Shown one piece after another: positions 2,931 through 25,092 of a DNA stretch of 64,000 nucleotides. Position 1 is the stretch's first letter; the number at the start of each line of letters is the position of its first letter. The notes beneath the pieces were generated by a model, which was not told where the DNA came from, made no database searches, and saw only the letters and a list, made by a program, of their open reading frames with translations. Origin of the DNA: Terriglobales bacterium (lineage in GTDB: Bacteria; Acidobacteriota; Terriglobia; Terriglobales; Acidobacteriaceae); the NCBI GenBank assembly GCA_035937515.1, contig DASZHW010000156.1, positions 4,958 through 68,957 on the forward strand, given 5' to 3'. Both the position numbers and the translations under genes were made by a program.

Positions 2931-5180
2931 TTACTGCACCGTGACCGTCGCCACGGCCCCGGCCACGGACATAAGTTGCATTGCCGGGTCGCGCGCCCCG
3001 CCTTTCGAGATCGTCAACGCGGACTGCCCGGCCGCTTTGGCGACGAAGGTCAAAGTGACCACCGTGCCTTGCCCGGGCACGCCGCTCGCGCCCGGTGGCC
3101 GGGTCGCGGTAATCTGCAAAGTCCCGGCGTCCTCGCGATGCACCAGCGCCACGGCCTGTCCATCCTGCGAAAGCAGGCCGCCGTTCGAGACGTTCGCCAC
3201 CTGCAAGATGTTGGGGTCGTAAGTGATCTGCAAGGGCACGGAATACACATTCTGCGCCCCGCGGAGCATCACATTCACGGCGAAGGTGGAGCCCACCGCC
3301 TGGGTAACGCTGGCCGGATCGAAGGCGAAACTGGCGGCGCTGGGCGCGGCCTGGGCGGCTGGGGCAGCGGCTGCGGCGGGCTGCGCCGAACTATCCCCAG
3401 CCGGCGGGGGAGGCGGTGTCTGACTGGCGCGCCGGAGTTCGATCGCCGCTGCCGTCCCCACCTCCAACGCCTTCTCATTCAAGTCAGTGAGTTCCCGGGC
3501 CCGCACAATGTGCGGGATCATGGCAAAGACGATCTCGTTTTCCTTGTGCTCGACGTTGCTCTGGGCGAACAGATATTTCAGGATGGGAATCTGCGCCAGT
3601 CCCGGAATCCCACTCAGCGAACGGATGTCCTGATCCTCCAGGATTCCACCCAGCAGGTTCACTTCGCCTTCCTTCAGCCGAATCTCATGCTCAATCTTCC
3701 GCTGCCCGATCACGGGCTGGCTGATGCCTCCGATGTTCGATTGCCCGGTAACCGATGAGATATCCATCGAAATCTTCAACGTGACTTCCCGCCCGGCATG
3801 GACCTTGGGCGTGATGTCGATATTCACGCCCACATCAAGATATTGAAATTGGGTGTTGACCAGGGGGTTGATGCCTACGCCGCCGATGCCGGGCTGGAAC
3901 GAACCGGTGGCCACGGGCACGCGATCGCCGATCTTGAGCGAAGCCTTCTGCCCATCCACGGCACGAATCTGCGGGTTCTGGATCAGTTTGGTATTGCTGT
4001 CGCTGAACAGCGCAGTGGCGGTGGCAGGCGGAATGGTGACGGTAAAATCGGTGGCATTCAGGTTCCCCAGGCGGTTCAGGTTAACCTGGTTTGCGGTTCC
4101 CGAGGTGGTCGTACTGGTGGTGGACGTAGTTGTGGTGGTGCTGCTGGTGTTGTTGATGTTGTTCTGCAGGGCCACGGTCATGCTGGTCGGGGGATTGATT
4201 CCCAGATTTCGTGTTTTGTCGCGGCTGACCTGCATGATTGCCACTTCCACAATCACTTCCGGACGCGCCTTGTCGAGATCGCCCACCAGTTTTTCCGCCA
4301 GGGCAATCTGGTCCGGCGTCCCGCGCACCACCAGCGCTCCCTGCGAAGGCAAGGGCTGAATGCGGGAAATTTCAAGAATCTGCCGGAGGGCGTTGACCAC
4401 ATCCTGGAGTTCGGTGGGCTGCGACAGATTGGCCATATAGAACGTCTTGATGACGCTTTGCTCAATTTCCTTCCGCTTGGCCGGATTGTCGGAAGCTACA
4501 AAAATGGTATTCGGCGTCACCGGCCGCCAGAATGTCTTCGATTCAAGAGCGATGATCTCGAGCGCGTCCTGCAGCGTGACCCCGTTCAGTTCGATCTTGA
4601 CCCGGCGCGAAGTGTAGTCCGGGTCAAACAGGACATTGATTCCCGCCAGCTTGCCCACGGTTTCATAAATGAGCTTGGTATCCTCGGTGAGCTTCAGGGT
4701 GATGGGGATGTTCGAAATGGCGGCCAGGTCCACCGGCCCCTGGGCTTCCTGCACCCGTTTCTGCAGGCCGGTTGGCGGCGGCGCCGGAGTGTTCGGCGGC
4801 GCGTTGGCAGCATCAATTAACTTCTGCGTACGCCGGATTTCCTGCTGAGCGATGAAACTCGCGCTATCGATCTGGGCTGCCTTCTGGAACTCCACCATGG
4901 CTTCCTGCAGCTTGCCGGCATCGCGCAACAACTGCCCACGATGCACGTGCGAGGCGCCGGCCAGGAAGCGGGTCCGCTCGTAGGCGGCGCGGTAGGCCAG
5001 ATCCCTGGGCTTTTGCTCGTAGGCCTGCCGGTAGTCTTCGTAAGCGGCTTCATAGTCCTGCCGAGCCTCCGCATCTTTCCCTTTGTTGTAGAAGGACTTG
5101 GCGCTCTCGGCCCCGGCGTGCAAGCCTACGGATAGAAAAAGCAACAGAATCGCTGCCGGGCGAATCAGGCGTGTCTTCAC
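2931..5180 (-). CDS. secretin (GspD/PilQ family) with TPR-like N-terminus and C-terminal cohesin-like domain
   Basis: Signal peptide, TPR-like helical region and secretin_N-type repeats; secretin core (LSGIPGLAQIPILKYLF); Pro/Ala linker, then a roughly 135-aa cohesin-like module (FAFDPASVT...VTLTFVAKAAG). GTG start. Confidence 0.85.
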   Translation of the reverse strand: MKTRLIRPAAILLLFLSVGLHAGAESAKSFYNKGKDAEARQDYEAAYEDYRQAYEQKPRDLAYRAAYERTRFLAGASHVHRGQLLRDAGKLQEAMVEFQKAAQIDSASFIAQQEIRRTQKLIDAANAPPNTPAPPPTGLQKRVQEAQGPVDLAAISNIPITLKLTEDTKLIYETVGKLAGINVLFDPDYTSRRVKIELNGVTLQDALEIIALESKTFWRPVTPNTIFVASDNPAKRKEIEQSVIKTFYMANLSQPTELQDVVNALRQILEISRIQPLPSQGALVVRGTPDQIALAEKLVGDLDKARPEVIVEVAIMQVSRDKTRNLGINPPTSMTVALQNNINNTSSTTTTTSTTSTTTSGTANQVNLNRLGNLNATDFTVTIPPATATALFSDSNTKLIQNPQIRAVDGQKASLKIGDRVPVATGSFQPGIGGVGINPLVNTQFQYLDVGVNIDITPKVHAGREVTLKISMDISSVTGQSNIGGISQPVIGQRKIEHEIRLKEGEVNLLGGILEDQDIRSLSGIPGLAQIPILKYLFAQSNVEHKENEIVFAMIPHIVRARELTDLNEKALEVGTAAAIELRRASQTPPPPPAGDSSAQPAAAAAPAAQAAPSAASFAFDPASVTQAVGSTFAVNVMLRGAQNVYSVPLQITYDPNILQVANVSNGGLLSQDGQAVALVHREDAGTLQITATRPPGASGVPGQGTVVTLTFVAKAAGQSALTISKGGARDPAMQLMSVAGAVATVTVQ

Positions 5181-10780: not shown

Positions 10781-11566
10781 ATGAAGCTCGCTCTATCGCT
10801 CTTGCTGGCTGTCTCTCTCATGCTGCCAATCCCCCCGTCAGTGGCCCAGGCGCCGCCAGAGTCTCGCCGCCCGCCTGATGGTGGAACGCGCCAGGTGCTG
10901 GTGAGTATTCTTATTCCATCTGTTCCCAATGCGCCGTTCAGCGCCACTGTCGTCACCGAATGGATTCGACAACTGGCGGACGGCAGCACCATCACACTGG
11001 GAAATCGCAGAGCCATCGCGCGTGACAAAGCCGGCCGCATCTTCCAGGAACGCCGGTTGCTGGTGCCGAATGACGGTAAGCAGGAGTCGATCGTCACCCA
11101 GATTGAGATCAGCGACCCGGTGGCGCATGATCTCTATATCTGCGTGCCCCAGGAGCACGTTTGCCAAGTGGAGGTTTTTTCTCCTCCTGAATTCATACAC
11201 TCCGGGGAACCCGCCAACTTCGCCACCCGGCGGCCGGGCTCTCCGACTCTCGAGGATCTGGGCAAGCAATCCCGCGCCGGTCTGGAAACCGAGGGCACGC
11301 GTGAGACGACGGTCATCGAGTCGGGTGCGATCGGGAACGACACACCAATTATGGTCAGGCGGGAGTATTGGTACTCGCCCCAGCTTAGCGTCAATATCAT
11401 CAGCAAGCTTCAGGATCCGCGAGTGGGCACACAGAGTTTTGAAGTTTCCGATATCGTGCTCGGCGAGCCTGACGCCCAGTTGTTCAAAGTGCCGGGAAAC
11501 TCCAAGGTCATCGACCTGCGGAAGTCGGTGGACCTCCCATCGCCAAACGACGAGCCTCCCAACTGA
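10781..11566 (+). CDS. hypothetical secreted protein
   Basis: Internal ATG gives a classical signal peptide, MKLALSLLLAVSLMLPIPPSVAQA. The upstream part of the track ORF overlaps the divergent gene. Confidence 0.55.
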   Translation: MKLALSLLLAVSLMLPIPPSVAQAPPESRRPPDGGTRQVLVSILIPSVPNAPFSATVVTEWIRQLADGSTITLGNRRAIARDKAGRIFQERRLLVPNDGKQESIVTQIEISDPVAHDLYICVPQEHVCQVEVFSPPEFIHSGEPANFATRRPGSPTLEDLGKQSRAGLETEGTRETTVIESGAIGNDTPIMVRREYWYSPQLSVNIISKLQDPRVGTQSFEVSDIVLGEPDAQLFKVPGNSKVIDLRKSVDLPSPNDEPPN

Positions 11567-11651
11567 TCTCGTCGTGGCACTTGGCGGTGCGAGTTGCGCA
11601 GCGGCCCCTTGCGTAATTCCCTTCCGGCCGACGATACTGGGTTACACAATC

Positions 11652-13151
11652 ATGAAAACCAATCTTTCTCTTTCCGCGCCCGCAGAAGTTGAAACCGAGT
11701 GTCTGGTAGTTGTCGCCCTTGATAAAGGCGAAAAGGACAAGCCGCAGGTTTCCATCGAGTCTTCCGACGCCGCCGTCAAGAACGCGGCCGCAGAGCTGAT
11801 CGCGAGCGGGGAACTGACGGCCAAGTCTTTTGAGGTTACGCTGCTGCATGGCCCGGGAAAGCTGAAAGCCAAGCGGCTTCTTATTCTGGGCGGCGGCAAG
11901 GCCAAGACGTTCTCTGCTTTCGATCTGCGCCGGATCGCGGGTGCTGCCGTGCGAACCCTCAAATCGCGCGGCCTGCGCAGCTTTGCCATCGTGGCCCCGG
12001 AAGCCGGACTCAAACCTGAAGAAGCGGTCAAGGCTATCGTTGAAGGCGCGTTCGTCGGCAACTTCGATCCCGACTATTACAAGAGTGACCGCAAGGACCA
12101 GAAGATTGATGCGCTGACCGTGGTGGCGCGTGGCGACCAGGCGAAACTTCAGCAAGCCATGGACGAAGCCCGCATCATCGGCGAATCGCAGAACTTCACC
12201 CGCGATCTGGTCAATGAGCCCTCCAACCATATGACCCCGACCATCATGGCCGAGCGCGCCCAAAAAATGGCCGCGGAAGTCGGACTGAAATGCGAAGTCT
12301 ACGGCGCGGACAAAATCAAGGAACTCAAAATGGGCGCCTTCTGGAGCGTGGCCCAGGGTTCTGATGAGCCGCCAGCGCTGATTGTGTTGCGTTACGAACC
12401 GGCCGGCGCTCCGGAAAGGCCGGTGCTGGGGCTGGTCGGCAAGGGCATCACCTTCGACACCGGCGGCATTTCCATCAAGCCCGCCGACGGCATGGAAAAG
12501 ATGAAATATGACATGGCCGGCGGCGCCGCCATGATCGGCGCCATGCGCGCCATCGCCCTGCTCAAGCCCAAGGTGAAGATCACCGCCATCATCTGCGCCA
12601 CCGAAAACATGCCGTCAGGCAAGGCGCAGAAGCCGGGTGACGTGCAGATTGCCATGTCGGGCAAATCGATTGAGATCATCAACACCGACGCTGAAGGCCG
12701 CCTGGTGCTGGCCGACGGCCTCTACTATGCGCGCCAGCTGGGCTGCACTCACCTGATCGACGCGGCCACGCTCACCGGCGCAGTGGTGGTGGCGCTCGGC
12801 TACACCAACGCCGGCATCTTCGCCAACAACGAACCGATGTACGAGCGCTTCACCCAGGCTCTGGCCAAGGCCGGCGAGAAGATGTGGCGCATGCCGCTGG
12901 ATGACGAGTACAAGGAAATCATCCGCTCCAACATTGCCGATATCGTGAATTCCGGGGGACGCTGGGGCGGCGCCATCACCGCGGCCATGTTCCTCAAGGA
13001 GTTCGCCGAGGACACGCCCTGGCTGCACCTCGACATCGCCGGCACCGCGTGGATGGAAGACCAGAAGCCCTGGATCGCCAAGGGTCCCTCGGGAATCGCA
13101 GTACGCAGCCTGGTGGAGTTTGCCCGGGACTTTGCCGATAGCAAGATCTGA
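11652..13151 (+). CDS. pepA: leucyl aminopeptidase (M17)
   Basis: NTDAEGRLVLAD and VGKGITFDTGG motifs. The 740-aa track ORF is an artefactual N-terminal extension; the start was set at MKTNLSL. Confidence 0.9.
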   Translation: MKTNLSLSAPAEVETECLVVVALDKGEKDKPQVSIESSDAAVKNAAAELIASGELTAKSFEVTLLHGPGKLKAKRLLILGGGKAKTFSAFDLRRIAGAAVRTLKSRGLRSFAIVAPEAGLKPEEAVKAIVEGAFVGNFDPDYYKSDRKDQKIDALTVVARGDQAKLQQAMDEARIIGESQNFTRDLVNEPSNHMTPTIMAERAQKMAAEVGLKCEVYGADKIKELKMGAFWSVAQGSDEPPALIVLRYEPAGAPERPVLGLVGKGITFDTGGISIKPADGMEKMKYDMAGGAAMIGAMRAIALLKPKVKITAIICATENMPSGKAQKPGDVQIAMSGKSIEIINTDAEGRLVLADGLYYARQLGCTHLIDAATLTGAVVVALGYTNAGIFANNEPMYERFTQALAKAGEKMWRMPLDDEYKEIIRSNIADIVNSGGRWGGAITAAMFLKEFAEDTPWLHLDIAGTAWMEDQKPWIAKGPSGIAVRSLVEFARDFADSKI

Positions 13152-13239
13152 GAAGCATCCCTTCCACCCCGGTCCGCATCTCATGCGGGCCGATGTATGC
13201 GGGATCGGTGTGCAATCAACTTCACTCGGGAGGTCTTCT

Positions 13240-13455
13240 ATGAAGGCTTTGTTTGCTGTGGGGCTTGCTGTGCTGATCCTGGGGATTCTCTCGTTTTTTG
13301 TGGCCATTCCTCATTCCGAGAATCATGGCATCAAGGCGGGTGATGTCAATATCGGCGTTCAGACTCATGAGAGCGAGAAAGTTGCGCCCGCCATCAGCGT
13401 GGTGTTAGTCGTGGCCGGGGCCGGGCTGATGATCGCGGGCCGGGGCAAGGGCTAA
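13240..13455 (+). CDS. small two-TM membrane protein
   Basis: 71 aa with two hydrophobic helices; GGGAGG SD 8 nt upstream of the ATG. Confidence 0.5.
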   Translation: MKALFAVGLAVLILGILSFFVAIPHSENHGIKAGDVNIGVQTHESEKVAPAISVVLVVAGAGLMIAGRGKG

Positions 13456-13575: not shown

Positions 13576-13878
13576 TTATCGATCCCAGTCACGATCGGTG
13601 TGCCATTGGTGATTGTGGCCATCCCACCATCCGTGATACGAGTTCCAGCAGCGCTCCCGCTCGGCATTCAAATCACGCCGCCGCTGATCCGCCTGGTGGC
13701 TGCGTTCGCCGTGCTTGCGAATCGCCTCGTCAAGCTTCATTTCCCTGCGCTCGATTTCCCGCTGGCACTTGGCATGATCGTCTGCGTATGAGGCAGGCAC
13801 GCCAACCAGCATCGCAGTACCCAGAGCCATACTCGTAACCGCCGATATCGCAAACTTCTTAAATCGTTGTAGTTTCAA
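13576..13878 (-). CDS. small secreted His/Trp/Arg-rich protein
   Basis: TTG start preceded by AGGAGG; signal peptide ...MLVGVPASYA. The upstream part of the track ORF has no support. Confidence 0.45.
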   Translation of the reverse strand: MKLQRFKKFAISAVTSMALGTAMLVGVPASYADDHAKCQREIERREMKLDEAIRKHGERSHQADQRRRDLNAERERCWNSYHGWWDGHNHQWHTDRDWDR

Positions 13879-14086
13879 GCAGCCCTCCTGTCTGAATCTA
13901 GACCGCACTATTTTGATTGAAAGTTGTGCTTCAACGTTGCCCGTTCGCGGGATAAATGTGTTCTCCGGTCCCATTTTGGCGCTTGCCCCGAATTGGTTCA
14001 TTCGTGGCGGGCAGGATGTAGAGATACCTTTCGGGCAAGCCCACAAGGACAAACCCGAGGCGGAATCGACAGGTTCGCCTGCAGCG

Positions 14087-14178: not shown

Positions 14179-16911
14179 TCAATTGATATCGAACTGCTCC
14201 TGGTGCAGCGCCGGATCACTCTTCACGATCACCGTCTTCTTGGTCAGCTCTTCCATCTCGGTCAGCGCTTTGCCGTTGTTGCCCTTGAGCGCCTTGGCGA
14301 CTTCCGGGTTCACCCGCAGCATCACGTCGGCATGCTCCAGATGCTTGGCGATCTTGCGCATCTCCAGGTAGATCTCATTGCACACCGTAGTCACTGACTT
14401 CACGAAGCCGGTGGACTGGCAATAGGGACACGGCGACCCGATGGTGCGCTCCAGTGATTGCTTCACCCGCTTGCGCGTGATGGCGACCAGTCCGAAATCG
14501 TTAAACTGCAGGACTTTGGACGGCGCACGGTCGGCGCGCAGGGCTTCTTCCAGAGCTTGCATCACTCGCTGCCGATTGCGCCGCTCATCCATGTCGATAA
14601 AGTCGATCACGATGATGCCACCCAGGTCGCGCAGCCGGATCTGGCGCACGATTTCCTTGATCGCGTCCACGTTGGTTTTGACGATGGTGTCTTCCAAGCG
14701 CGCGGTTTTTCCCACGTACTTGCCGGTGTTTACGTCGATCGCGACCAGCGCCTCGGTTTGATTGATCACAATGTAGCCGCCACTCTTCAGCCACACCTTC
14801 GACTTGAGCGCCTTGTTGATTTCCTCGCTCAGCCCGAATTGCTCGTAGAGCGGCACTTCCTTGGTATAGAGCTTGACCCGTTTGACCAGCGCGGGCTGGA
14901 AGCGGTTGGCGAAACGCAAGATGCGCTCGTATTCCTCGTCGCTGTCCACCCAGATGGCGGAGAAGTCGGAGGTGACCTGATCGCGCAGCACACGCTCCAC
15001 CACGTTGAGATCGTGATAGATGAGGGTTGGACCCTTGCCCGCGTCGGCGCGGCTCTTGATCTCAGCCCACAGGCCTTTCAGGAAGCGGATATCGGCGCGG
15101 AGTTCTTCTTCCGCGGCATTCATCGCCGCGGTGCGCACGATGAATCCCCCGTGGCCATTCTCGCGCTCACTCTGAATGATGCGCTTCAGGCGCTGCCGTT
15201 CTTCTTCGGAAGCGATCTTGCGCGAAACTCCGGTGTGATTCACGGTCGGCATGTACACCAGGAAGCGGCCGGGCAGGGCGATGTGGCTGGTGATGCGGGC
15301 ACCCTTCTTGCCGATCGGCTCTTTGGCAATCTGCACCAGGATTTCCTGGCCTTCCTTGAGCAGGTCAGTGATCAGCGGCATATTCTGCTGTTCGTTCCGC
15401 CGGAAGCGGCGTCCTCCGCCTCCACGGCGGCCGCCACGCTGGGGCCGGCGGTCGAATCCGGGACGAGGCGCGCGCTGAGTGTAGCCGGCGGTACCGGCGG
15501 GAGCGCGAACTTCAGCCCTGGCCTCGGTCATTCCGCTTCCCCCGGCTTCGGCGGCAAGAGCTGCTTCCGCTTCCGCCTGGGCCTCGTCGAGTTCGGCCTC
15601 CTCTTCCGCCTCGTCGTCGACTTCCTCGGCAGCGGCTACGTCCACAGCTTCAGGTGAAACCGGCTCCGCGGAAAATGGCACTTCGCTTACTGCAGGCTCC
15701 GCCGAGGCAGCGATTTCGTGCGGGGTCTCGTGCTGCTCACCTGCGGCGTGGGTTTCCTCTTCGAGTTCCTCGAAAGCGGCATCTTCCTCGAGTTCCTCGA
15801 CGTAGTGCGCCAGGTCGGCTTCTTCCTCTTCGATCTCTTCTTCCTCCACCGTGCCTGCTGCCGTCGCGGGCGGCTGGTCGGAATGCTCGGCCACCACTAT
15901 AAGTTTGTCATCTGATTCATCGGCGGTTTCCTCATCGTCATCGCCTTCTTCGGCGGCTTCACCGCCGAATACCGCGGCCACGTTCGCCTGATGAAGCCGC
16001 TTTTGTTCGCGGTCCCAATCGCTGGAGGCGTCAACTTCGCGATCCTGCGCGGGCCGCGCGACGAATTCCGCCCCAACTTCCTTTGGCGGTTCGGGGACCG
16101 TGCCGGCAAACATGGGTTCGTCGTCGGAAAAGATCTGAGCCAGCGGCGCCACCGGTTCGGGCGACGCAGTCGCCGGCCTACCCGCCTGGGGCGCGGGCCG
16201 GGACTGGGCCATCCGCTGATACTTGGAGATGGATTCTCCCGGCAAAATGATGGGCTGGTATCCCGGTGGCGGACCGTACTCGGGCCGTTCATGGCGATTG
16301 CTGCGCTCCGGCGGTTCGTTGCGTTCGGGCCGCTCGCCGCGTTCGAAACGGTCGGGGCGTTCGGCGCGCGGCGCCTCCCGCGGAGCTTCGGCCGGGGCCT
16401 GGGTGAACTTCGACTCCGGAAATTTTTCTCCACGGCGCCCGCGACGGCGGCGTCTCCCTCGGAAGCCGCCCCGGTTGTCTTGTGACTCGGCGGAACCGGA
16501 GGCCTCGCGGTGCTCCCCAGGAGTCGTGTCTCTAGGCTCCTGCACCCGGGACTCCTGCACCCGCGACTCGGACACAAATGGAACAGGTGTCTCTACCGGA
16601 TGGGTCTCGCCCGGCGGCTGGGCCTGATAGTGCTCGGCTGCCGGGCGGTTGGTGGGAATTTCGTCAACTTCGTCGGCGTCCTCCAACTCCATGAAGTCGG
16701 AGACGTAAAGGAACGCGTCCCGCTCCAGGCCGATGTCGACAAATGCCGATTGCATCCCCGGAAGCACCCGGGTCACACGTCCTTTGTAGATGGATCCGGC
16801 CAGGGTGTATTCGTTTTCGCGTTCGAGGTAGATTTCTGCGAGCAGATCATCTTCGACCAGCCCCACTTTGGTTTCGTGCGGGGTGGAAGACACAAACAAT
16901 TCTTTCGTCAT
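14179..16911 (-). CDS. rne: ribonuclease E/G family endoribonuclease with large internal low-complexity insertion
   Basis: N-terminal S1 segment (IYKGRVTRVLPGMQSAFVDIG); catalytic motifs AIDVNTG and IVIDFIDM; Zn-link CPYCQSTG. About 435 charged, repeat-rich residues are inserted after the first half of S1. Confidence 0.9.
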   Translation of the reverse strand: MTKELFVSSTPHETKVGLVEDDLLAEIYLERENEYTLAGSIYKGRVTRVLPGMQSAFVDIGLERDAFLYVSDFMELEDADEVDEIPTNRPAAEHYQAQPPGETHPVETPVPFVSESRVQESRVQEPRDTTPGEHREASGSAESQDNRGGFRGRRRRRGRRGEKFPESKFTQAPAEAPREAPRAERPDRFERGERPERNEPPERSNRHERPEYGPPPGYQPIILPGESISKYQRMAQSRPAPQAGRPATASPEPVAPLAQIFSDDEPMFAGTVPEPPKEVGAEFVARPAQDREVDASSDWDREQKRLHQANVAAVFGGEAAEEGDDDEETADESDDKLIVVAEHSDQPPATAAGTVEEEEIEEEEADLAHYVEELEEDAAFEELEEETHAAGEQHETPHEIAASAEPAVSEVPFSAEPVSPEAVDVAAAEEVDDEAEEEAELDEAQAEAEAALAAEAGGSGMTEARAEVRAPAGTAGYTQRAPRPGFDRRPQRGGRRGGGGRRFRRNEQQNMPLITDLLKEGQEILVQIAKEPIGKKGARITSHIALPGRFLVYMPTVNHTGVSRKIASEEERQRLKRIIQSERENGHGGFIVRTAAMNAAEEELRADIRFLKGLWAEIKSRADAGKGPTLIYHDLNVVERVLRDQVTSDFSAIWVDSDEEYERILRFANRFQPALVKRVKLYTKEVPLYEQFGLSEEINKALKSKVWLKSGGYIVINQTEALVAIDVNTGKYVGKTARLEDTIVKTNVDAIKEIVRQIRLRDLGGIIVIDFIDMDERRNRQRVMQALEEALRADRAPSKVLQFNDFGLVAITRKRVKQSLERTIGSPCPYCQSTGFVKSVTTVCNEIYLEMRKIAKHLEHADVMLRVNPEVAKALKGNNGKALTEMEELTKKTVIVKSDPALHQEQFDIN

Positions 16912-17292
16912 TCGGACTCCGGTCCCGGGCCGTCAAGCAGCCGCGGGATCACCGGATGAAAGGCAGAGTAAAGCTGGGAGGATCAAGCACTGCGATAGCC
17001 GTCCCAGACGTGGGACAGTTCGAGCCTCGGAGTTCTCTCCGTGGCTGTATTCGTTGCGTAAGATTAGGAATCTTTAGCACTTATCGCACTACGCCTGACG
17101 GGTTTGTGACCGCTCTCTCCAGATCTCTCGGTCTAAGAGGGGGCCGTTACCTGCCCGTGGCGTCTTGGCTCAATCCTGCCCGGCTCTTACTGCATTTCCA
17201 GCCGGCTTGTGCCCTCTTCACGCGAGGGCGATCGTAATTAATCTTGTTTTCCGCCGCGTCGAGCGCGGCCATTGCCCCCGTCTTCCTCCGGT

Positions 17293-18378
17293 TCAGTTCA
17301 CGAAACGGCGCATACGGACATTCATCACAATGCCCAACGCCAGAAACATGAACAGGACAGAAGACCCGCCATAACTCATCAGCGGCAGGGGTATTCCGGT
17401 AACCGGCATAAAGCCGACCACCATGCCGACATTGACCAGGATATGGAAGCTTAGCACTGCCACCACACCCATTACCACGAACGTGCCGGCGCGGTCGGGC
17501 GCCGTCTGGGCGTTCTGAGTCAATCGCATCAGCACTATGAAGTATAGCAGCAACACTGCCAAGGCTCCTACAAATCCGTGTTCCTCGGCGAATGCGGCGA
17601 AGATAAAGTCGGTCTGCGGGACCGGCAAGAATGCCAAATGGGTCTGGGAACCCTCCGAATTCCCCCATACTCCCCCTGAGCCCACCGCAATGAGCGACTG
17701 GTTCACCTGGTACCCGGAGCCCTGACTGTCGGCCTCGGGATGCATGAAGCTGGTCAGACGGTCCCGCTGGTACGGCTTCAAAGCATGCCATGCCAGGGGG
17801 AGAAGTAAAGCCGCCCCCAGGGTGACGATGGCAGCCTGCTTGAAGCGAACCCCGCCCAGAAACAAGCCGATGATGGCAATGGGCAGGTAGGTAAGGCCGG
17901 TCCCCAGGTCGGGCTGCCGCAGAACCATGAGCATGGGCACGATGACAATGGCCCCGGCTTTCATGAAGTCCGGCCAGGAGAGCTCTCTTTGATGCAGGTC
18001 GGCGAAATACTTGGCTACGGCCAGGATCAGGATGAGCTTGACCCACTCCGAGGGCTGGAAATGGCCTCCTCCCGGCATTTTCACCCAGCGCCGCGCGCCC
18101 AGGTACTTCTGACCAAAAATCAGCACCGTCATCAGCGACACAATGGCCGCGATATAGAGCCAGTGCACCCGGTCCAGCAGCTTCTGGTAGTTCACCAGGC
18201 TCACCAGGAACATTCCGACCATTCCGCCCGCAATCCAGTAGATCTGCCGGATGTGCGCTCCGGCAAACTTGGTATGCAGGGTCGCACTGTGGATCTCCAT
18301 GACTCCCAGCCCGCAGATCATCAGGATGAAGATCAGCAGCAGCCAGTCAAAATCGCGAAATGAAATGTAACGGGACAT
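17293..18378 (-). CDS. rodA: rod shape-determining protein RodA (SEDS family)
   Basis: 10-TM FtsW/RodA/SpoVE family pattern (GGGHFQPSE, LPVPQTDFIFA, TGIPLPLMSYGGSS); last gene of the mre operon. Confidence 0.92.
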   Translation of the reverse strand: MSRYISFRDFDWLLLIFILMICGLGVMEIHSATLHTKFAGAHIRQIYWIAGGMVGMFLVSLVNYQKLLDRVHWLYIAAIVSLMTVLIFGQKYLGARRWVKMPGGGHFQPSEWVKLILILAVAKYFADLHQRELSWPDFMKAGAIVIVPMLMVLRQPDLGTGLTYLPIAIIGLFLGGVRFKQAAIVTLGAALLLPLAWHALKPYQRDRLTSFMHPEADSQGSGYQVNQSLIAVGSGGVWGNSEGSQTHLAFLPVPQTDFIFAAFAEEHGFVGALAVLLLYFIVLMRLTQNAQTAPDRAGTFVVMGVVAVLSFHILVNVGMVVGFMPVTGIPLPLMSYGGSSVLFMFLALGIVMNVRMRRFVN

Positions 18379-18379
18379 G

Positions 18380-18442
18380 GTCGTCAGTCGTCGGTCTTCA
18401 GGAATTCGTCGTCGGTCGTTGGCCCTCGGCCGTTGGCCAATA
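18380..18442. repeat. heptamer tandem array, 9 units in exact register (GTCGTCA GTCGTCG GTCTTCA GGAATTC GTCGTCG GTCGTTG GCCCTCG GCCGTTG GCCAATA)
   Basis: Read directly. It begins 1 nt from the rodA start codon and is 51/63 identical to the array at 20580-20642. Confidence 0.9.
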
Positions 18443-18592
18443 CCTTTCCGTTCCTGTCTGCAGCCGGGTTTACTATTCTGGTTCCTCCACCTGTCATCTT
18501 GAGCGGAGTCGAAAGACCCCTACTCCATTAACTCCTGTCGCAGAGTAGCGCCGGCATCCTGCCCGCTGTCTCGAGGGCATCTCGCCCTCGGG

Positions 18593-20572
18593 CTACTGTA
18601 ACCCCGGCGCCGCCGTCGCCAGTGGCAAACGCGCATCCGGTAGATCCAGCAGGAAATGACCTCCGCGTATGGAATCGGCATCCCCATTCGTCGCGTCCCC
18701 GTCCGCGCCGTTCCACACTGCTCCGATATCCACTTTCTGACTGCCACCGGCCATTTTGCTGGGCTGGCGGCGTTGCTTCTCCACGTATGCCTTAATCACC
18801 TGGGCGGCGGTTCGAGCCGCCAGGTATCCGTGCTCGCCTTCCTCCAACAGGGCGCACACCACGATTTCCGGATTGCGCCGGGGCTCGACTCCGGCAAACC
18901 ATCCGTTGTCCTTGAAGTTGGCCTTGCCGGCCGCGCCCAGCTTGGCTTTCAGGGTATTGCTGATGGTCTGGGCGCTGCCGGTTTTGCCGGCAAAATCAAT
19001 GCCCTGCAAGTGCGATAGGGCAGCCGTCCCGCCCGGATTCACCACCCCCGCCATGGCGTCGGTAATCGTCTCCCAATTGGCAGGATCGATCGGAATCCTT
19101 ACCTCATCCGGCACGTTCGACGCCGGCACAATGCCCGGCGGCAAATCGCGCGGATTGGTGACATGCGGCCGCACCAGCAGGCCCCCGCTGGCAATGGCGC
19201 CAATCGCCCGAGCCAACTGGATGGGCGTCGCGGCCACAGCACCCTGCCCGATGCCCACCGAAATCGTCTCTCCCGCGTACCATTTTTGCTTGAAATTGCG
19301 GATCTTCCATTCCTCCGAAGGCATGACTCCGGTGACTTCCTGGGGAAGATCAATCCCGGTTTTTTGTCCCAGGCCAAACGCCATGGCGTATTTCGCGATG
19401 CGCTCGATGCCCAGCTTCTCCGCCAGGGTGTAGAAGAAAACGTCGCAGGACTGATAAATGGCCTTACTGATGTCGGTAATGCCGTGGGTACGGTGCTCGG
19501 CCACGACCCAGCATTTGAAATATCGTCCGTAGAACGACGCGCCTCCGGTGCAATTCACCTTCATGGCCTGCGCAATGCCTTCCTGCAGACCCGCAGTGGC
19601 CATGATGATTTTGAACACCGAACCGGGAGCCAGTTGCGCCTGAATGGCCTTGTTCAACAAGGGATGATCGGCGTCGTTGACCAGCTTCATCCACTCGTCA
19701 TTGGAAATTCGCACCGCAAAATCGTTGGGATTGTAGGTAGGACGGCTCACCAAGGCCAGGATTTCGCCGGTGCGAGGGTCCATGGCCACAATGGCCCCAT
19801 TTCTCCCCTCCAGAGCCTGTTCCGCGGCAATCTGCAAATCAATATCGAGGGTCAGCTTGAGCGCTTTTCCGGGTACCGCCGGCTTCTGGTCCAACTCTCC
19901 GACTTCCTTCCCCTTGCTGTTCACCAGCACCTGGCGGGAACCATTCTTGCCCATCAGGATCGAGTTGTATTCCAGCTCCACCCCTGACTTCCCCACCACG
20001 TCGCCGGGGTTGTAAAGCTCCCATCGGGCCTGGTTCAGCATCTGCTCGCTGACCTCGCCCACGTAGCCTACGAGATGGGCCATGAAACCGTTGCGGGGAT
20101 ACAGCCGCCGGTGGGCCATGATGGTGTCCAGTTCCGGCAGTTCGTTGCGGTGCGATTCGATGAACGCCAGTTCATCCTGGGTGATGTCTTCCTTGAGATA
20201 AATCGGCTGATACTGGGCAGTGCCGGTGAACTTGCGAATCCGCTCCCGCACTTCTTTGGGATCGAGATGCAGGCCCTGCGCGATCAGGTCCGCGTCCACG
20301 GTGAGATCGCGGGTGGAGTCGCGCAGCAGCAGGGCGGTGTAGGAGGGATAGTTGTCCACGATGATCCGGCCATCGCGGTCATAAATCTTGCCGCGGGGCG
20401 CCAGAATGGGAACCTCGCGAGTCTTGTTTTTCTCCGCTAGAGCGGCGTAGAACTCGCTCTGCACCACCTGCAGCCGCCACAGTCCGTAGGCCAGCACCAA
20501 AAAAATGACGAGGATGATGTATTGCACCGCGGTGAGACGGAATCCCGATACTTTTTCGTCGCGGCCAAACAT
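18593..20572 (-). CDS. mrdA: penicillin-binding protein 2 (elongasome transpeptidase)
   Basis: PBP dimerisation and transpeptidase domains (SVFK active-site-like motif, KTGSAQ); sits between mreD and rodA. Confidence 0.92.
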   Translation of the reverse strand: MFGRDEKVSGFRLTAVQYIILVIFLVLAYGLWRLQVVQSEFYAALAEKNKTREVPILAPRGKIYDRDGRIIVDNYPSYTALLLRDSTRDLTVDADLIAQGLHLDPKEVRERIRKFTGTAQYQPIYLKEDITQDELAFIESHRNELPELDTIMAHRRLYPRNGFMAHLVGYVGEVSEQMLNQARWELYNPGDVVGKSGVELEYNSILMGKNGSRQVLVNSKGKEVGELDQKPAVPGKALKLTLDIDLQIAAEQALEGRNGAIVAMDPRTGEILALVSRPTYNPNDFAVRISNDEWMKLVNDADHPLLNKAIQAQLAPGSVFKIIMATAGLQEGIAQAMKVNCTGGASFYGRYFKCWVVAEHRTHGITDISKAIYQSCDVFFYTLAEKLGIERIAKYAMAFGLGQKTGIDLPQEVTGVMPSEEWKIRNFKQKWYAGETISVGIGQGAVAATPIQLARAIGAIASGGLLVRPHVTNPRDLPPGIVPASNVPDEVRIPIDPANWETITDAMAGVVNPGGTAALSHLQGIDFAGKTGSAQTISNTLKAKLGAAGKANFKDNGWFAGVEPRRNPEIVVCALLEEGEHGYLAARTAAQVIKAYVEKQRRQPSKMAGGSQKVDIGAVWNGADGDATNGDADSIRGGHFLLDLPDARLPLATAAPGLQ

Positions 20573-20579
20573 GGGAATA

Positions 20580-20642
20580 GTCGTCGGTCGTCAGTCGTCA
20601 GCTGCTCGTCGTTGGTCGTTGGCCTTTGGTCGTTGGCCAATC
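20580..20642. repeat. heptamer tandem array, 9 units in exact register (GTCGTCG GTCGTCA GTCGTCA GCTGCTC GTCGTTG GTCGTTG GCCTTTG GTCGTTG GCCAATC)
   Basis: Read directly. It begins 7 nt from the mrdA start codon. 20608-20636 is the reverse complement of 20744-20772 at 26/29 positions. Confidence 0.9.
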
Positions 20643-20743
20643 ACGTTACTTTTTATTGTAGACCGGAGGGGAACGGCTTTTGTTGTCATCAACGGTGACG
20701 GAGGGACATCACCGGTTGGATGGATGAGCAGCTGTCGGATTTT

Positions 20744-20772
20744 CCAACGACCAATGACCGACGACCAACGAC
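20744..20772. repeat. inverted partner heptamer array (CCAACGA CCAATGA CCGACGA CCAACGA C)
   Basis: Read directly; ends 5 nt from the mreD stop codon. Confidence 0.9.
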
Positions 20773-20777
20773 GCTGG

Positions 20778-21296
20778 TCACGCTCTCTGCTTGAACCTAT
20801 CCAGCAGGGTAAACAGGATGGCGGCCGTAACTGCGTTCAGCAAGGCGGCTCCCACCTCATGGCTCCAACTCCATTCCACCGCCAGTTTCACCAGCCCGCG
20901 GGCCACGGTGAAGTACACCACCTCGTGGACGGCGAAGAAAAACAGGGTGACCAGGAAGCGGGCGCCGACATTCTCGATGTCCAGCTTCGCGCCCAGAGAA
21001 GACGCCCCAAAACCCACCACCGTCTTGGCAATTCCATAAATCCCGATGGGCTGATGGGTAAGGGAATCCTGCAGCAGGCCGATCAGCGATCCCGTGAGCA
21101 GTCCGGCTACGGGGCTTCTGCGGGCCACGGCGAAGAAAATCACCACCAGCAGTGGCAAGTCAAACAGCGAGAAGAAGTGGAACCGCAACGGCAGAAAGGC
21201 CTGCAGAAAGAGGGCGATGAGCGGAACCGCAATCGACACTGGAAGACTGAACCGGTAAACCTCCACTTGCTCCTGAGATGTGTAGGTGATGGGCAC
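20778..21296 (-). CDS. mreD: rod shape-determining protein MreD
   Basis: 172-aa polytopic membrane protein immediately after mreC; position and size are typical of MreD. Confidence 0.8.
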   Translation of the reverse strand: MPITYTSQEQVEVYRFSLPVSIAVPLIALFLQAFLPLRFHFFSLFDLPLLVVIFFAVARRSPVAGLLTGSLIGLLQDSLTHQPIGIYGIAKTVVGFGASSLGAKLDIENVGARFLVTLFFFAVHEVVYFTVARGLVKLAVEWSWSHEVGAALLNAVTAAILFTLLDRFKQRA

Positions 21297-21297
21297 G

Positions 21298-22434
21298 CTA
21301 TTGTGGTCTCTCCACTCCGGTCGCAGGTTGGCCGGCGGCGGGCGCGGGTTTTTGTGCCGTTTCCGGTTTCACCCGGGCTTGCACACCAGGATTGGCCGAA
21401 TGCGCGGATCCCGCGTCGCTGTTGGCCGCGCTCTTCGCTGTGGCTGCGGCTATGCCTGCGGACGCGGGTGAGGATGGACTGGCCACGGACGACGCGGCCG
21501 CCGGGTTCTTGCTGGCATCGCTTGCCGGCTTGTCCGGAACCGAGGGCAGCCGCTGGGTCAGAATGTCCACCGCCCGCACCCTGCCACTGTCCGACATCAC
21601 CGGAGCGCGGTCCTCTTTCTTGGTGATGACCAGAACCTCTTCCAACTTGCTCAAGTTGGCGCTGGGCCGGATGCGGATATTCATGAACAGGTCCGCGCCC
21701 GGAGAAACCTTGGTGATGGAGCCCACAGTGAGGCCCTTGGGAAAGATCTGATCGCCGCCGCTGGTCACGACCCGCTCTCCCGGCGCCACCTGCTCATCGG
21801 TCATCACTTTTTCCAGGGCCAACTCTCCCGCCGCCGTGCCCCGGACCACGCCTTGCAGGCGCGATCGGTCCAGGATGACGCCCATCCCGCTGGTCTGGTC
21901 GTTAATCAGAAGGACCTGGGAGGTGGAACCATACGCCCGTAACACCTTGCCCACAACTCCGTCGGCGGTGATCACCGCCATGTCCTTTTCAACCCCGTCT
22001 CCCGTGCCCTTGTCGATGTAGATGGACCGGGACTGTTCACTGCCGCTGGAGCCGATCACCTGTGCGGCCACGGTCTTGGCGATGTACTGCTCTTTGAACC
22101 CGAGCAACGCCTGCAAACGGCGGGCCTGCTCAGCATCGTCGCTCAGACGGACCTGCTCCAGCCGCAGGCGCTCGATCTCGAACTTGAGGTCGCGATTCTC
22201 CTGGCGCACGCCGCGCAGGTAAACATAGTCGTGCCAGAGATTGCCCAGACCGCTTTCGCACCAGACAATGGCTTTTTCGAGAGGACTGACTGCGCCCACC
22301 GTCCACAACCGGATCAGGCGGGTCGACTCGTCGTCGCTGCTGCGCTTGACCTGTACCGCCAGCCCCAGCACCTGTACAAACAGGATCGCCGCCAGGATGG
22401 TTACATTGCGATAGCGGCTGATCAGAGTTTCCAT
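21298..22434 (-). CDS. mreC: rod shape-determining protein MreC (with about 100-aa Ala/Ser/Pro-rich C-terminal tail)
   Basis: N-terminal TM, coiled coil (ENRDLKFEIERLRLEQ) and MreC beta-barrel region (GVVGKV, VVTSGGDQIFPKGLTVG). Confidence 0.88.
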   Translation of the reverse strand: METLISRYRNVTILAAILFVQVLGLAVQVKRSSDDESTRLIRLWTVGAVSPLEKAIVWCESGLGNLWHDYVYLRGVRQENRDLKFEIERLRLEQVRLSDDAEQARRLQALLGFKEQYIAKTVAAQVIGSSGSEQSRSIYIDKGTGDGVEKDMAVITADGVVGKVLRAYGSTSQVLLINDQTSGMGVILDRSRLQGVVRGTAAGELALEKVMTDEQVAPGERVVTSGGDQIFPKGLTVGSITKVSPGADLFMNIRIRPSANLSKLEEVLVITKKEDRAPVMSDSGRVRAVDILTQRLPSVPDKPASDASKNPAAASSVASPSSPASAGIAAATAKSAANSDAGSAHSANPGVQARVKPETAQKPAPAAGQPATGVERPQ

Positions 22435-22443
22435 TGAAAAACA

Positions 22444-22479
22444 GTTTCGGGTTTCTGGTTTCTGGTTTCTGGTTTCTAG
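22444..22479. repeat. heptamer tandem array GTTTCGG GTTTCTG x3 GTTTCTA
   Basis: Read directly; ends 9 nt from the mreC start codon. Confidence 0.9.
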
Positions 22480-22547
22480 ACGCCGGCAGTTCCATGGATT
22501 GTTCGGGCACGGGACGGGCTAGGATGCCCGCCCTCCACTAACCCACT

Positions 22548-22575
22548 GGAAACTAGAAACCGGAAACCAGAAACT
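22548..22575. repeat. inverted partner array GGAAACT AGAAACC GGAAACC AGAAACT
   Basis: Read directly; overlaps the mreB stop codon (TAG on minus = cta 22574-22576). Confidence 0.9.
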
Positions 22576-23635
22576 ATTCTATTGAGATCTTGCGCAGCAA
22601 CTTGAAATCGCTCAGCATCTTGCCCGTGCCCAGCACCACACTGCACAGCGGGTCGTCGGCGATCGAGACCGGCAATCCGGTTTCCTCGCGGATGCGCTTG
22701 TCCAGGTTCTTCAACAACGCCCCACCGCCGGTGAGCACGATGCCGCGGTCGCTGATATCGGCGGAAAGCTCGGGAGGGGTGCGCTCCAGAGCCACGCGAA
22801 TGGCATTCATGATGGTCGAAACGCACTCGCTCAGAGCTTCGCGGATTTCGCTGTCGTCGACGGTGATGGTCTTGGGCACGCCTTCGATCAGGTTGCGGCC
22901 CTTGATTTCCATGGTCAGAGGCTTTTCCAGCGGATACGCCGAGCCAATTTCCATCTTGATCTGCTCCGCGGTGCGCTCGCCCACCAGCAGATTGTATTTC
23001 CGCTTCAGGTAGTTCATCACCGCTTCGTCCATCTGGTTGCCGGCCATGCGCACGGAACGGGAATACACGATGCCGCTCAGCGAGATGACCGCGATATCGG
23101 TGGTGCCTCCGCCGATATCCACCACCATATTGCCGCTGGGTTCGGTGATGGGAAGTCCCGCGCCGATGGCGGCCACCATGGCCTGCTCCACCAGGTACAC
23201 CTCGCTGGCTTTGGCGCGATAGGCCGAGTCCATGACCGCCCGCTTTTCTACCTGGGTAATTTCCGAAGGCACGCCGATGACGATCCGCGGATGCACCAGC
23301 ATCTTGCGATTGTGCGCCTTCTGGATGAAGTAATTCAGCATCTTCTCGGTGACTTTGAAATCGGCAATCACGCCATCTTTCATGGGCTTGATGGCCACGA
23401 TATTGCCCGGGGTCCGGCCCAGCATCTCTTTGGCCTCTTTGCCCACGGCTTCGACTTCACCGGTGTTCTTGTTGATGGCCACGATGGAGGGCTCGTTCAC
23501 CACAATGCCCTTGCCCCGCGCGTACACCAGCGTGTTGGCGGTTCCCAGGTCAATGGCAAGATCGCTGGAAAAAATGCTGAACAGCGATCTCAGGTTGTGC
23601 AGGCGCGTCGAAGAATGGAATCCGTTAGATGACAT
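22574..23635 (-). CDS. mreB: rod shape-determining actin homolog MreB
   Basis: DLGTANTLVY, VVDIGGGTTD and IVLTGGGALL motifs; full length. Confidence 0.95.
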   Translation of the reverse strand: MSSNGFHSSTRLHNLRSLFSIFSSDLAIDLGTANTLVYARGKGIVVNEPSIVAINKNTGEVEAVGKEAKEMLGRTPGNIVAIKPMKDGVIADFKVTEKMLNYFIQKAHNRKMLVHPRIVIGVPSEITQVEKRAVMDSAYRAKASEVYLVEQAMVAAIGAGLPITEPSGNMVVDIGGGTTDIAVISLSGIVYSRSVRMAGNQMDEAVMNYLKRKYNLLVGERTAEQIKMEIGSAYPLEKPLTMEIKGRNLIEGVPKTITVDDSEIREALSECVSTIMNAIRVALERTPPELSADISDRGIVLTGGGALLKNLDKRIREETGLPVSIADDPLCSVVLGTGKMLSDFKLLRKISIE

Positions 23636-23796: not shown

Positions 23797-25092
23797 CTAC
23801 TGGATCACGATCTTTTTCTGTAACGTGTTGACCCCGCCCTTGGCATTCTGAGCCGTAATGGTGATCACACTCTCCCCCGGCGGCAGTGGAGGCATGAAAT
23901 AGTGAAAACTGCCATCGACACCGACTACCGGCACTTCCCGGCCGTTGACCATCACCCGCGCCCCCGCCTCGGTCTTTCCGGTCAACTCGATCACGCGGCC
24001 ATGCTGCATGAATGGATCCAGTTCCAGGTTGATGGCAGCGGTTTCCTTGCCCTTGGGAATGATGGTGAAGCGGTTCTTCTGGCTCTCCACCGACTCCTTC
24101 TCATTGGCGTCGTAGGACTGCACTACCCAGTAATACGCTCCTTCGCTCAATCCTGAAACAATTACGTCCGCGGTGTTGACCTTGCGATCCACAACCGTGG
24201 AAGAAAAGTAGGGGTTGTGCGAAATCCGCAGCCGATATCCCACCGCGTTGGCCATCGCCGTCCAGGAGAACTCCACCGGCTTGGGAGTGCCCGAAGTGAA
24301 CACCGGCATCATGTTGGCCGGCGAAATCGGTGTGGGCGGCCCGATCTCCTTCAACTTGGCCATGCGCGGCGATTGCGATTGGAAAGCCACCTTCTCCCAG
24401 TCCGCCAGGTGCACGACCTCGCCGTTCCGTGAAATCTCGCTCGACCCTTTCTTAACCAGAATCTCGTGCTGATCGGCTTTGGGATCGTTGTGCACCATGG
24501 CCGCGCTATCCGGTGCCAGGGAGGCGGTGGCCCCAGCCACGATCACTTGCGATTTCGATCCCTGGACATAGGTAGCGGTCGATAGATCCACGGTGCCCGT
24601 ACTGACGGCTACGGCTACATTGGTCTGCTGCTGGTCGTTGGCCGAATTCTCCTCAATCACGATCAGCGAATCCTGCTTCACCGTGTAGTTGGTCCCGTCA
24701 TTAAAGACGATCTTGGCCATGCCTTCCGAGCCGGTCTGAACCACGTCGCCTTTTTCCAGGGGCACGTTGTAATCAGCCGTCACCCAACTGTTGCTGCTCG
24801 CTTTCTTGACCCGCACCGTCCCATCCAGGGCGGTGATATGGGCCTGTTGTGAGTTGGTCGTGCCGGTCTTGGTGGTTCCCCCCGCCCCGGCAATGATCTC
24901 CAGCAACCGGCCCCCCAGGCTGCTGACCGATTTGACCCCCTTCTGGGTGAACTGGGGAAAGGCGAAATTCATCCCCACGCAAAACAGAATCAAGGCGAAC
25001 AATATGGCCAGGGCCACACTGCGATAGGTGACCGTCTTCCACGCAACATGGATTCCTGGTTTGCTACTCGAAGACACAAAGGCCCCGGACAC
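23797..25092 (-). CDS. FecR-domain membrane-anchored protein with C-terminal Ig/Fn3-like domains
   Basis: TM helix; FecR-like segment (GTVRVKKASSNSW...GDVVQTGSEGMAKIVFNDGT); beta-rich C-terminus. GTG start, uncertain. Confidence 0.6.
   Translation of the reverse strand: MSGAFVSSSSKPGIHVAWKTVTYRSVALAILFALILFCVGMNFAFPQFTQKGVKSVSSLGGRLLEIIAGAGGTTKTGTTNSQQAHITALDGTVRVKKASSNSWVTADYNVPLEKGDVVQTGSEGMAKIVFNDGTNYTVKQDSLIVIEENSANDQQQTNVAVAVSTGTVDLSTATYVQGSKSQVIVAGATASLAPDSAAMVHNDPKADQHEILVKKGSSEISRNGEVVHLADWEKVAFQSQSPRMAKLKEIGPPTPISPANMMPVFTSGTPKPVEFSWTAMANAVGYRLRISHNPYFSSTVVDRKVNTADVIVSGLSEGAYYWVVQSYDANEKESVESQKNRFTIIPKGKETAAINLELDPFMQHGRVIELTGKTEAGARVMVNGREVPVVGVDGSFHYFMPPLPPGESVITITAQNAKGGVNTLQKKIVIQ

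Follow-up and report, generated by a model that had tools for sequence, protein, structure and literature searches.

What does an RNA-decay enzyme gain from several hundred disordered residues placed inside its own catalytic domain? This question is raised by a gene of a Terriglobales bacterium (GTDB lineage Bacteria; Acidobacteriota; Terriglobia; Terriglobales; Acidobacteriaceae) that lies on the 64,000-nucleotide stretch analysed here, the window, which corresponds to positions 4,958 to 68,957 of the forward strand of contig DASZHW010000156.1 (NCBI GenBank assembly GCA_035937515.1). The gene, at 14179-16911 on the minus strand of the window, is a single 910-amino-acid reading frame, open throughout without interruption, and is assigned by Pfam and by family profile scores to the Rne/Rng endoribonucleases. 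Within its S1 domain, 435 residues (74-508; 15388-16692) occupy the place of 12 residues in the corresponding loop of Escherichia coli RNase E. We propose, with a probability of about 0.6, that this loop is the functional counterpart of the non-catalytic region of RNase E, and a scaffold role is predicted for it. The insert is an oversized form of a known type of S1 insertion, is common to the whole class Terriglobia and probably acts as a built-in docking platform.

The enzyme around the insert is an intact Rne/Rng ribonuclease. Pfam places the RNase_E_G domain at residues 546-816 and the small domain at residues 827-909, and because the latter extends to the stop codon the protein has no C-terminal tail, in agreement with an earlier sequence-only reading of this DNA, which had described an enzyme with no C-terminal scaffold. 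The Rne/Rng family profile TIGR00757 is passed with 484.6 bits (cut-off 325.95), the RNase G equivalog NF008689 is failed with 507.8 bits against a cut-off of 594, a score that the split alignment may depress, and the enterobacterial RNase E profile NF008074 is failed with 264.1 bits against 908; the core hence scores nearer RNase G than RNase E. Asp726 and Asp770 and the Zn-link residues Cys828 and Cys831 (14419-14742, minus strand) align with D303, D346 and C404/C407 of the E. coli enzyme, which we take to be its catalytic aspartates and its Zn link, and R593 and T594 align with what are presumably 5' sensor residues. D726, N728, D770, R593, T594, C828 and C831 are all invariant among 116 homologue sequences, and in the Zn link, CPYCQSTG, a serine replaces one consensus glycine. 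With the catalytic residues kept, endoribonuclease activity is predicted. No Rne/Rng member other than the 910-residue frame was found in this genome, which is 75% complete.

The boundaries of the insert follow from a phmmer comparison with solved structures, in which residues 4-72 align with residues 3-72 of E. coli RNase E and residues 509-847 with residues 85-423. The sequence-only reading had already recognized an insertion of roughly 435 residues within S1, the first half of the domain ending in FLYVSDF near residue 73 and the second resuming near residue 514, and the alignment agrees: FLYVSDF ends at residue 73, ITDLL begins at 514, 397 residues remain after that, and the lower coordinate given there, 15382, departs from 15388 by a trivial two codons. 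The two halves of S1 correspond to residues 39-73 (16693-16797) and 509-552 (15256-15387), on the minus strand like all parts of the protein. The insert itself consists of 17.9% E, 14.7% A, 10.3% P and 10.1% R, the residues A, E, P and V together making up 48%; it has no Pfam match at E<=1, and a search of the ESM Atlas returned no structural match for it, only Acidobacteriota clusters below 0.9. From the N-terminal side it contains a first Arg-rich block (residues 147-160; 16432-16473), an FPESKF-type motif (residues 164-169) that is patchy, its pattern occurring in 23 of 60 inserts from the class, poorly conserved ERP-type mixed-charge repeats (residues 184-211; 16279-16362), the nine-residue motif LPGESISKY (residues 223-231; 16219-16245), an acidic Ala/Glu-rich linker with isolated predicted helices (about residues 318-456; 15544-15960) and, within 15397-15516, a strand-like A-x-V-R motif (residues 466-471) followed by a second Arg-rich block (residues 488-505) directly before S1 resumes. 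The Arg-rich, ERP-type and acidic blocks quoted in the sequence-only reading are thus all present. By its class-wide conservation and raised model confidence, LPGESISKY is a candidate binding microdomain, and among the open frames of this genome no other credible carrier of a motif of this type was found.

Two AlphaFold models were obtained, model 1 from 116 close sequences and model 2 from 149 more diverse ones. In model 1, the predicted local distance difference test score (pLDDT) of S1 is 40-65 and Foldseek aligned only the part after the insert, whereas in model 2 both S1 halves reach 90-98, in the first half over residues 31-70. Residues 39-552 of model 2 superpose on the E. coli S1 domain (1smx) with a Z score of 12.0 and a root-mean-square deviation (rmsd) of 2.2 Å over 81 of 87 residues, and the model matches the Caulobacter S1/5'-sensor fragment (4OXP) with a Z score of 21.7 and an rmsd of 1.9 Å over 175 residues. 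The insert lies mostly below a pLDDT of 50 in both models. In these predictions S1 is therefore folded from the two flanking halves around a disordered loop, as had been expected from the sequence. The LPGESISKY region stands out with a pLDDT of 73-74 compared with about 40 around it, and residues 212-240 are at 50 or more in both models; other loop helices that are not docked score 79-84, equal to or above the motif region, so its raised confidence is not diagnostic.

The giant insert is a class-wide trait and not peculiar to this genome. A search across the class matched the Rne/Rng family in 119 of 121 genomes, and 60 loci were fetched, spread over 13 families by choice and not at random; the survey of insert length that the sequence-only reading had suggested gives 258-859 residues (median 410) in all 60, with a C-terminal tail never longer than one residue. 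Elsewhere in the phylum, 20 loci of other classes, chosen from unsplit family matches, have loops of 22-237 residues, and 13 further loci outside the class, chosen because the family match was split and belonging to a sister clade in another class of the phylum, have inserts of 293-547 residues. The 119 next-best homologues are 69-88% identical to the query, and all of them cover 92-100% of it. More widely, 150 representatives were taken at 50% identity, of which 140 could be parsed and 10 lacked the N-terminal part; inserts of at least 150 residues occur in 98 of the 140, and 53 of these combine the class motif with the absence of a tail. Apart from this, one protein of 1034 residues shows two matched stretches, with a full Rne/Rng unit from near residue 530, and is possibly a tandem double, and two genomes of the class each give two separate matches to the catalytic part, pointing to a duplicate gene or to bin contamination.

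Despite a threefold variation in length, the order of parts is fixed in the class, an Arg block being followed by LPGE-S/T/K, the acidic linker and a second Arg block. LPGE-S/T/K is found in 60 of 60 class inserts, compared with a mean of 0.2 in local shuffles, and the full nine-residue motif in 57; an Arg block precedes it in 56, the acidic linker is present in 55, and an Arg block lies in the last 110 residues of the insert in all 60. In further long homologues the motif is kept in 119 of 120, the single exception being an L-to-M variant. Outside the class, the LPGE start of the motif alone occurs in one of nine medium inserts and in none of the 13 from the sister clade. These instead carry motifs of their own that are absent from all 60 class inserts, namely FERxxD-type repeats in one to three copies (12 of 13) and a KDAxxQExI-type motif (11 of 13). 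A pattern A-x-V-R...F/Y...RR before the last Arg block is seen in 29 of 60 class inserts (shuffle mean 4.5) and in 11 of 13 sister-clade inserts (shuffle mean 0.7), a pattern that was devised after both sets had been viewed, is failed by the variant in the present protein and is only a lead. In the core of the enzyme, 21 positions show preferential conservation among proteins that carry the motif, the sharpest case being K876 (99% versus 8%). One family, represented by two loci, carries an LPGET variant near the start of the insert and ahead of the first Arg block, suggestive of a moved or duplicated copy.

How the insert arose was addressed with a FastTree tree (233 sequences) built from the part of the protein beyond the insert and rooted, arbitrarily, at the midpoint. 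In this tree, 114 motif-bearing proteins and three without the motif form one clade (0.988). Its sister is another clade with giant inserts (0.999); the medium loops, and after them the short ones, branch off outside. The nesting of the giant inserts inside medium and short loops suggests a stepwise expansion in place on an RNase G-like enzyme. Large inserts apparently also arose separately in a distant clade. The sequence-only reading had held that the entire scaffold appears relocated into S1; the hallmarks of the RNase E non-catalytic region are indeed found in the insert and the tail is missing, but relocation is not supported, as the core is RNase G-like, the gene stands behind rodA in the mre cluster and the tree points to expansion in place.

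The comparison with known systems supports a scaffold-like reading of the loop. The closest counterpart in position is the S1 insertion of RNase E in alphaproteobacteria and plants, which is about 50-150 residues long and of unknown role (PMC4245959, PMC3045602); these sources, in the portions available, report the insert only from plants and from alphaproteobacteria (or Gram-negative proteobacteria). The Caulobacter crescentus insert (4OXP) occupies the same S1 loop and is likewise charged and predicted to be disordered, whereas the insert described here is 435 residues long (258-859 in the class), has a conserved motif of its own and stands in a protein without a tail, Caulobacter RNase E having kept its C-terminal scaffold. 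The statement in the sequence-only reading that the Caulobacter insert is a helicase docking site is not borne out by the available portions of Voss 2014, which map RhlB to fragment 1-274, that is, to S1, the insert and the 5' sensor together, and not to the insert itself (PMC4245959). In composition, the closest counterpart is the non-catalytic region of gammaproteobacterial RNase E, for which Ait-Bara et al. describe disorder, AEPV bias, tandem repeats and microdomains that are specific to lineages and turn over between them (PMC4435900). The insert shares the disorder, the AEPV-rich bias, the Arg-rich blocks and the tandem repeats of the E. coli and gammaproteobacterial C-terminal region, and the differing motifs of the class and the sister clade match this microdomain turnover, which supports the scaffold-like reading (PMC4435900). 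In contrast to that region, the insert is internal, with S1 at both ends and no membrane helix found, and the core scores far below the RNase E cut-off. RNase G (Rng/CafA) provides the best-scoring core, also ends at the small domain and is also found behind mre genes, which is presumably the position of the E. coli RNase G gene; it differs in that the present protein falls below the RNase G cut-off and possesses a large non-catalytic region, and in that no second Rne/Rng enzyme was found in its genome.

The content of RNA-decay genes gives the proposed scaffold its cellular setting. RNase J is encoded in 60 of 61 genomes of the class and RNase Y in three. Outside the class, among 60 hand-picked genomes, RNase Y is present in one of 14 with a split (giant) ribonuclease gene versus 38 of 46 with an unsplit gene, and RNase J in 44 of the 60; as the genomes are related to one another, the RNase Y pattern is a lead rather than a test. 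The genome studied here encodes PNPase, a DEAD-box helicase and RNase J. The gene neighbourhood names no partner, RNase J being adjacent in one of 173 loci, PNPase in one and a DEAD-box helicase in none, within limited flanks; the single RNase J case is a sister-clade genome in which that gene immediately follows the one for the ribonuclease. As a separate observation, the PNPase of this genome ends in a low-complexity tail of roughly 110 residues with RGG/GGR repeats and is a possible second condensate-prone component.

A second conserved element lies between rodA and the start codon of the ribonuclease gene, where a leader of 381 nucleotides (16912-17292, minus strand) was recognized by folding, conservation and covariation. 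It matches 36 of 173 loci, compared with two for the neighbouring pbp2-rodA gap, not every locus spanning both, and it folds below shuffled sequences (z -4.19). An alignment of 28 leaders yields 48 consensus pairs, in which 95% of cells are paired; in 18 of these pairs both sides have changed, more than in all 500 shuffles and all slid controls, and one conserved hairpin covers the ribosome-binding site. In the last 200 nucleotides of 30 leaders the folding z scores are mixed, with seven of 30 at -2.4 or lower. A search with a DNA profile found the leader once in this genome and in 29 of 55 named contigs outside the training set, labelled Terriglobales or Acidobacteriaceae. Rfam gave no match at gathering scores in the window, the best E value for the leader being 0.47 with an unrelated family, no sigma-70-like promoter was found within the leader, and no description of it was found in the openly accessible literature. 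The leader is a candidate cis-regulatory RNA motif of Terriglobales and a candidate autoregulatory 5' untranslated region (UTR), and its length and conservation suggest separate control of the ribonuclease gene. In E. coli and Caulobacter, RNase E regulates its own synthesis through a structured 5' UTR in a manner that requires the disordered region (PMC11321048), and an rne-II motif, RF01756, is listed in PMC2864571; by analogy, the ribonuclease might be autoregulated here too. The leader resembles these elements in being long and structured and in preceding an RNase E/G gene with a disordered region, and differs from them in having no Rfam match that reaches the gathering score or a meaningful E value.

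The loop anatomy, the S1 fold, the conservation and the gene content come from computation, and every binding event in the mechanism that follows is one that we infer. We hypothesize that the single RNase E/G endoribonuclease of the cell, whose catalytic core is intact and descends from an RNase G-like enzyme, carries on S1 a surface loop that has grown to 435 disordered residues and would do the job of the C-terminal half of E. coli RNase E. The two Arg blocks would bind RNA beside the S1 clamp, LPGESISKY would fold on binding a conserved protein partner, for which PNPase, RNase J and a DEAD-box helicase are candidates, and condensates may be favoured by the alternation of charge blocks. The enzyme would be the main mRNA-decay endonuclease of a lineage that lacks RNase Y, and it may tune its own level through the structured leader. 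A bolder version, which is possible but to be held only tentatively, is that the Terriglobia and the sister clade independently reinvented RNase E: after loss of RNase Y, an RNase G-type enzyme would have come to organize an 'inside-out' degradosome or condensate, with the S1 loop as its whole scaffold, RNase J or PNPase docked through the class-specific nine-residue motif, and feedback provided by an undescribed leader RNA.

Several observations weigh against this proposal. The three class genomes with RNase Y all belong to one family and RNase Y is also missing from eight genomes with unsplit genes, and the RNase Y pattern amounts essentially to one or two events. About 25 distant homologues, apparently an independent expansion, combine an S1 insert of 180-420 residues with a tail of 79-425 residues, and hence a large insert does not in every case take the place of the tail. 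An amphipathic membrane-targeting helix, a nearly universal RNase E microdomain in gammaproteobacteria (PMC4435900), was not found in the insert by a simple scan, in which any 14-residue window without an internal proline contained at most five large hydrophobic residues. The Caulobacter insert sits in the cleft that binds RNA, a location that speaks for regulation (PMC4245959). As to the leader, the alignment used to count the pairs had also supplied its structure, the covariation lies mainly in peripheral hairpins with the long-range helices barely varying, and at fetched loci outside the training set it is found in four of 58 from the class, all of the same family as this genome, and in none of 33 from outside the class, including none of the 13 sister-clade loci.

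The last of the points on the insert itself leads to the least unlikely of the alternatives, that the loop is a cis-acting gate, LPGESISKY docking on the core of its own or a neighbouring subunit and the acidic stretch mimicking RNA, and access to the cleavage channel being controlled in the way that has been suggested for the small Caulobacter insert. A helix of the Caulobacter insert occupies the predicted RNA site, where its acidic residues may mimic RNA, and deletion of the Arabidopsis insert lowers activity (PMC4245959). The raised confidence of the motif region in both single-chain models, the non-helical part of residues 212-240 included, and the 21 core positions conserved along with the motif would fit such docking. 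However, undocked helices elsewhere in the loop reach equal or greater confidence, common ancestry alone would account for class-specific core residues, and a gate would not require 260-860 residues. We consider this role unlikely.

Still less probable, in our estimation, is an account in which the loop is a tolerated expansion driven by slippage, selection acting only on the RNA-binding Arg blocks, with RNA avidity or condensation as the outcome and no protein partner. The range of lengths (258 to 890 residues), the lack of conservation over most of the sequence, the short tandem repeats and the separate origin of large inserts in a distant clade are all in line with it. A neutral or RNA-only role does not, however, predict that a hydrophobic nine-residue motif should be kept in nearly every class insert and further long homologue, and this conservation counts against it.

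It is very improbable that the motif serves to anchor the enzyme at the cell-wall elongation machinery or at the membrane, in replacement of the E. coli membrane helix. Such a role would suit a gene that stands last in an mreB-mreC-mreD-mrdA(PBP2)-rodA cluster on the same strand (17293-23635, from the frame list and Pfam), with rodA directly upstream in 57 of the 60 class loci as far as the fetched flanks extend, and an insert in which the scan found no membrane helix. But rodA also adjoins the gene in 13 of 20 relatives that have short or medium loops and lack a class-type insert, so this gene order is older than the motif, and the long conserved leader suggests that the ribonuclease gene is controlled separately. 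Finally, a mis-assembly, gene fusion, folded inserted domain, intein or intron can be dismissed for practical purposes, the one RNA-library contig joint that skips 15351-16703 being backed on its short side by no more than 23 letters, at 85% likeness, as expected of a short-loop homologue from another organism, while the reading frame is unbroken, Pfam recognizes nothing in the insert, the 119 next-best homologues span it, RNA-library contigs nearly identical to parts of it differ at 0 of 237 and 2 of 301 nucleotides (the RNA runs sharing 5-16% of words, and the contigs being uninformative on expression level, strand and transcript ends), and its conservation in 60 of 60 independent genomes refutes the idea. 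Neither an S1 fold completed before residue 73 and followed by a known folded domain, nor a frameshift or assembly artefact, which the sequence-only reading had named as the outcomes that would overturn it, was encountered.

Around the ribonuclease and the mre cluster, the window contains a few further genes. A protein with FecR-like and Ig-like parts is encoded directly upstream of mreB (23797-25092, minus strand). Downstream of the ribonuclease gene are two small frames of 158 and 111 amino acids (13576-14052, minus strand, and 13120-13455, plus strand), neither with a Pfam match and each found beside the ribonuclease gene in one of 80 named loci. The window also carries an M17 leucyl aminopeptidase gene (10929-13151, plus strand), the domains of which begin near residue 261, the true start probably lying near 11650.

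A review table from 2011 lists the RNase E/G of Fibrobacteres/Acidobacteria with 511 residues and predicts no degradosome (PMC3071783); Terriglobia in fact carry several hundred scaffold-like residues hidden inside the catalytic domain. Because the insert sits there, surveys based on tails and gene names such as 'ribonuclease G' miss it, and no description of an acidobacterial S1 insert was found in the openly accessible literature. To the insert itself are added a near absence of RNase Y with RNase J kept, and a conserved structured leader. For the S1 insertion in general, whose role has remained unexplained, a near-invariant nine-residue motif, a sister clade with other motifs and a candidate feedback RNA provide handles. 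If the loop is only a gate or a linker, it would be the size record for a known insertion; if it is a scaffold, as we propose, degradosome function would be independent of a free terminal tail.

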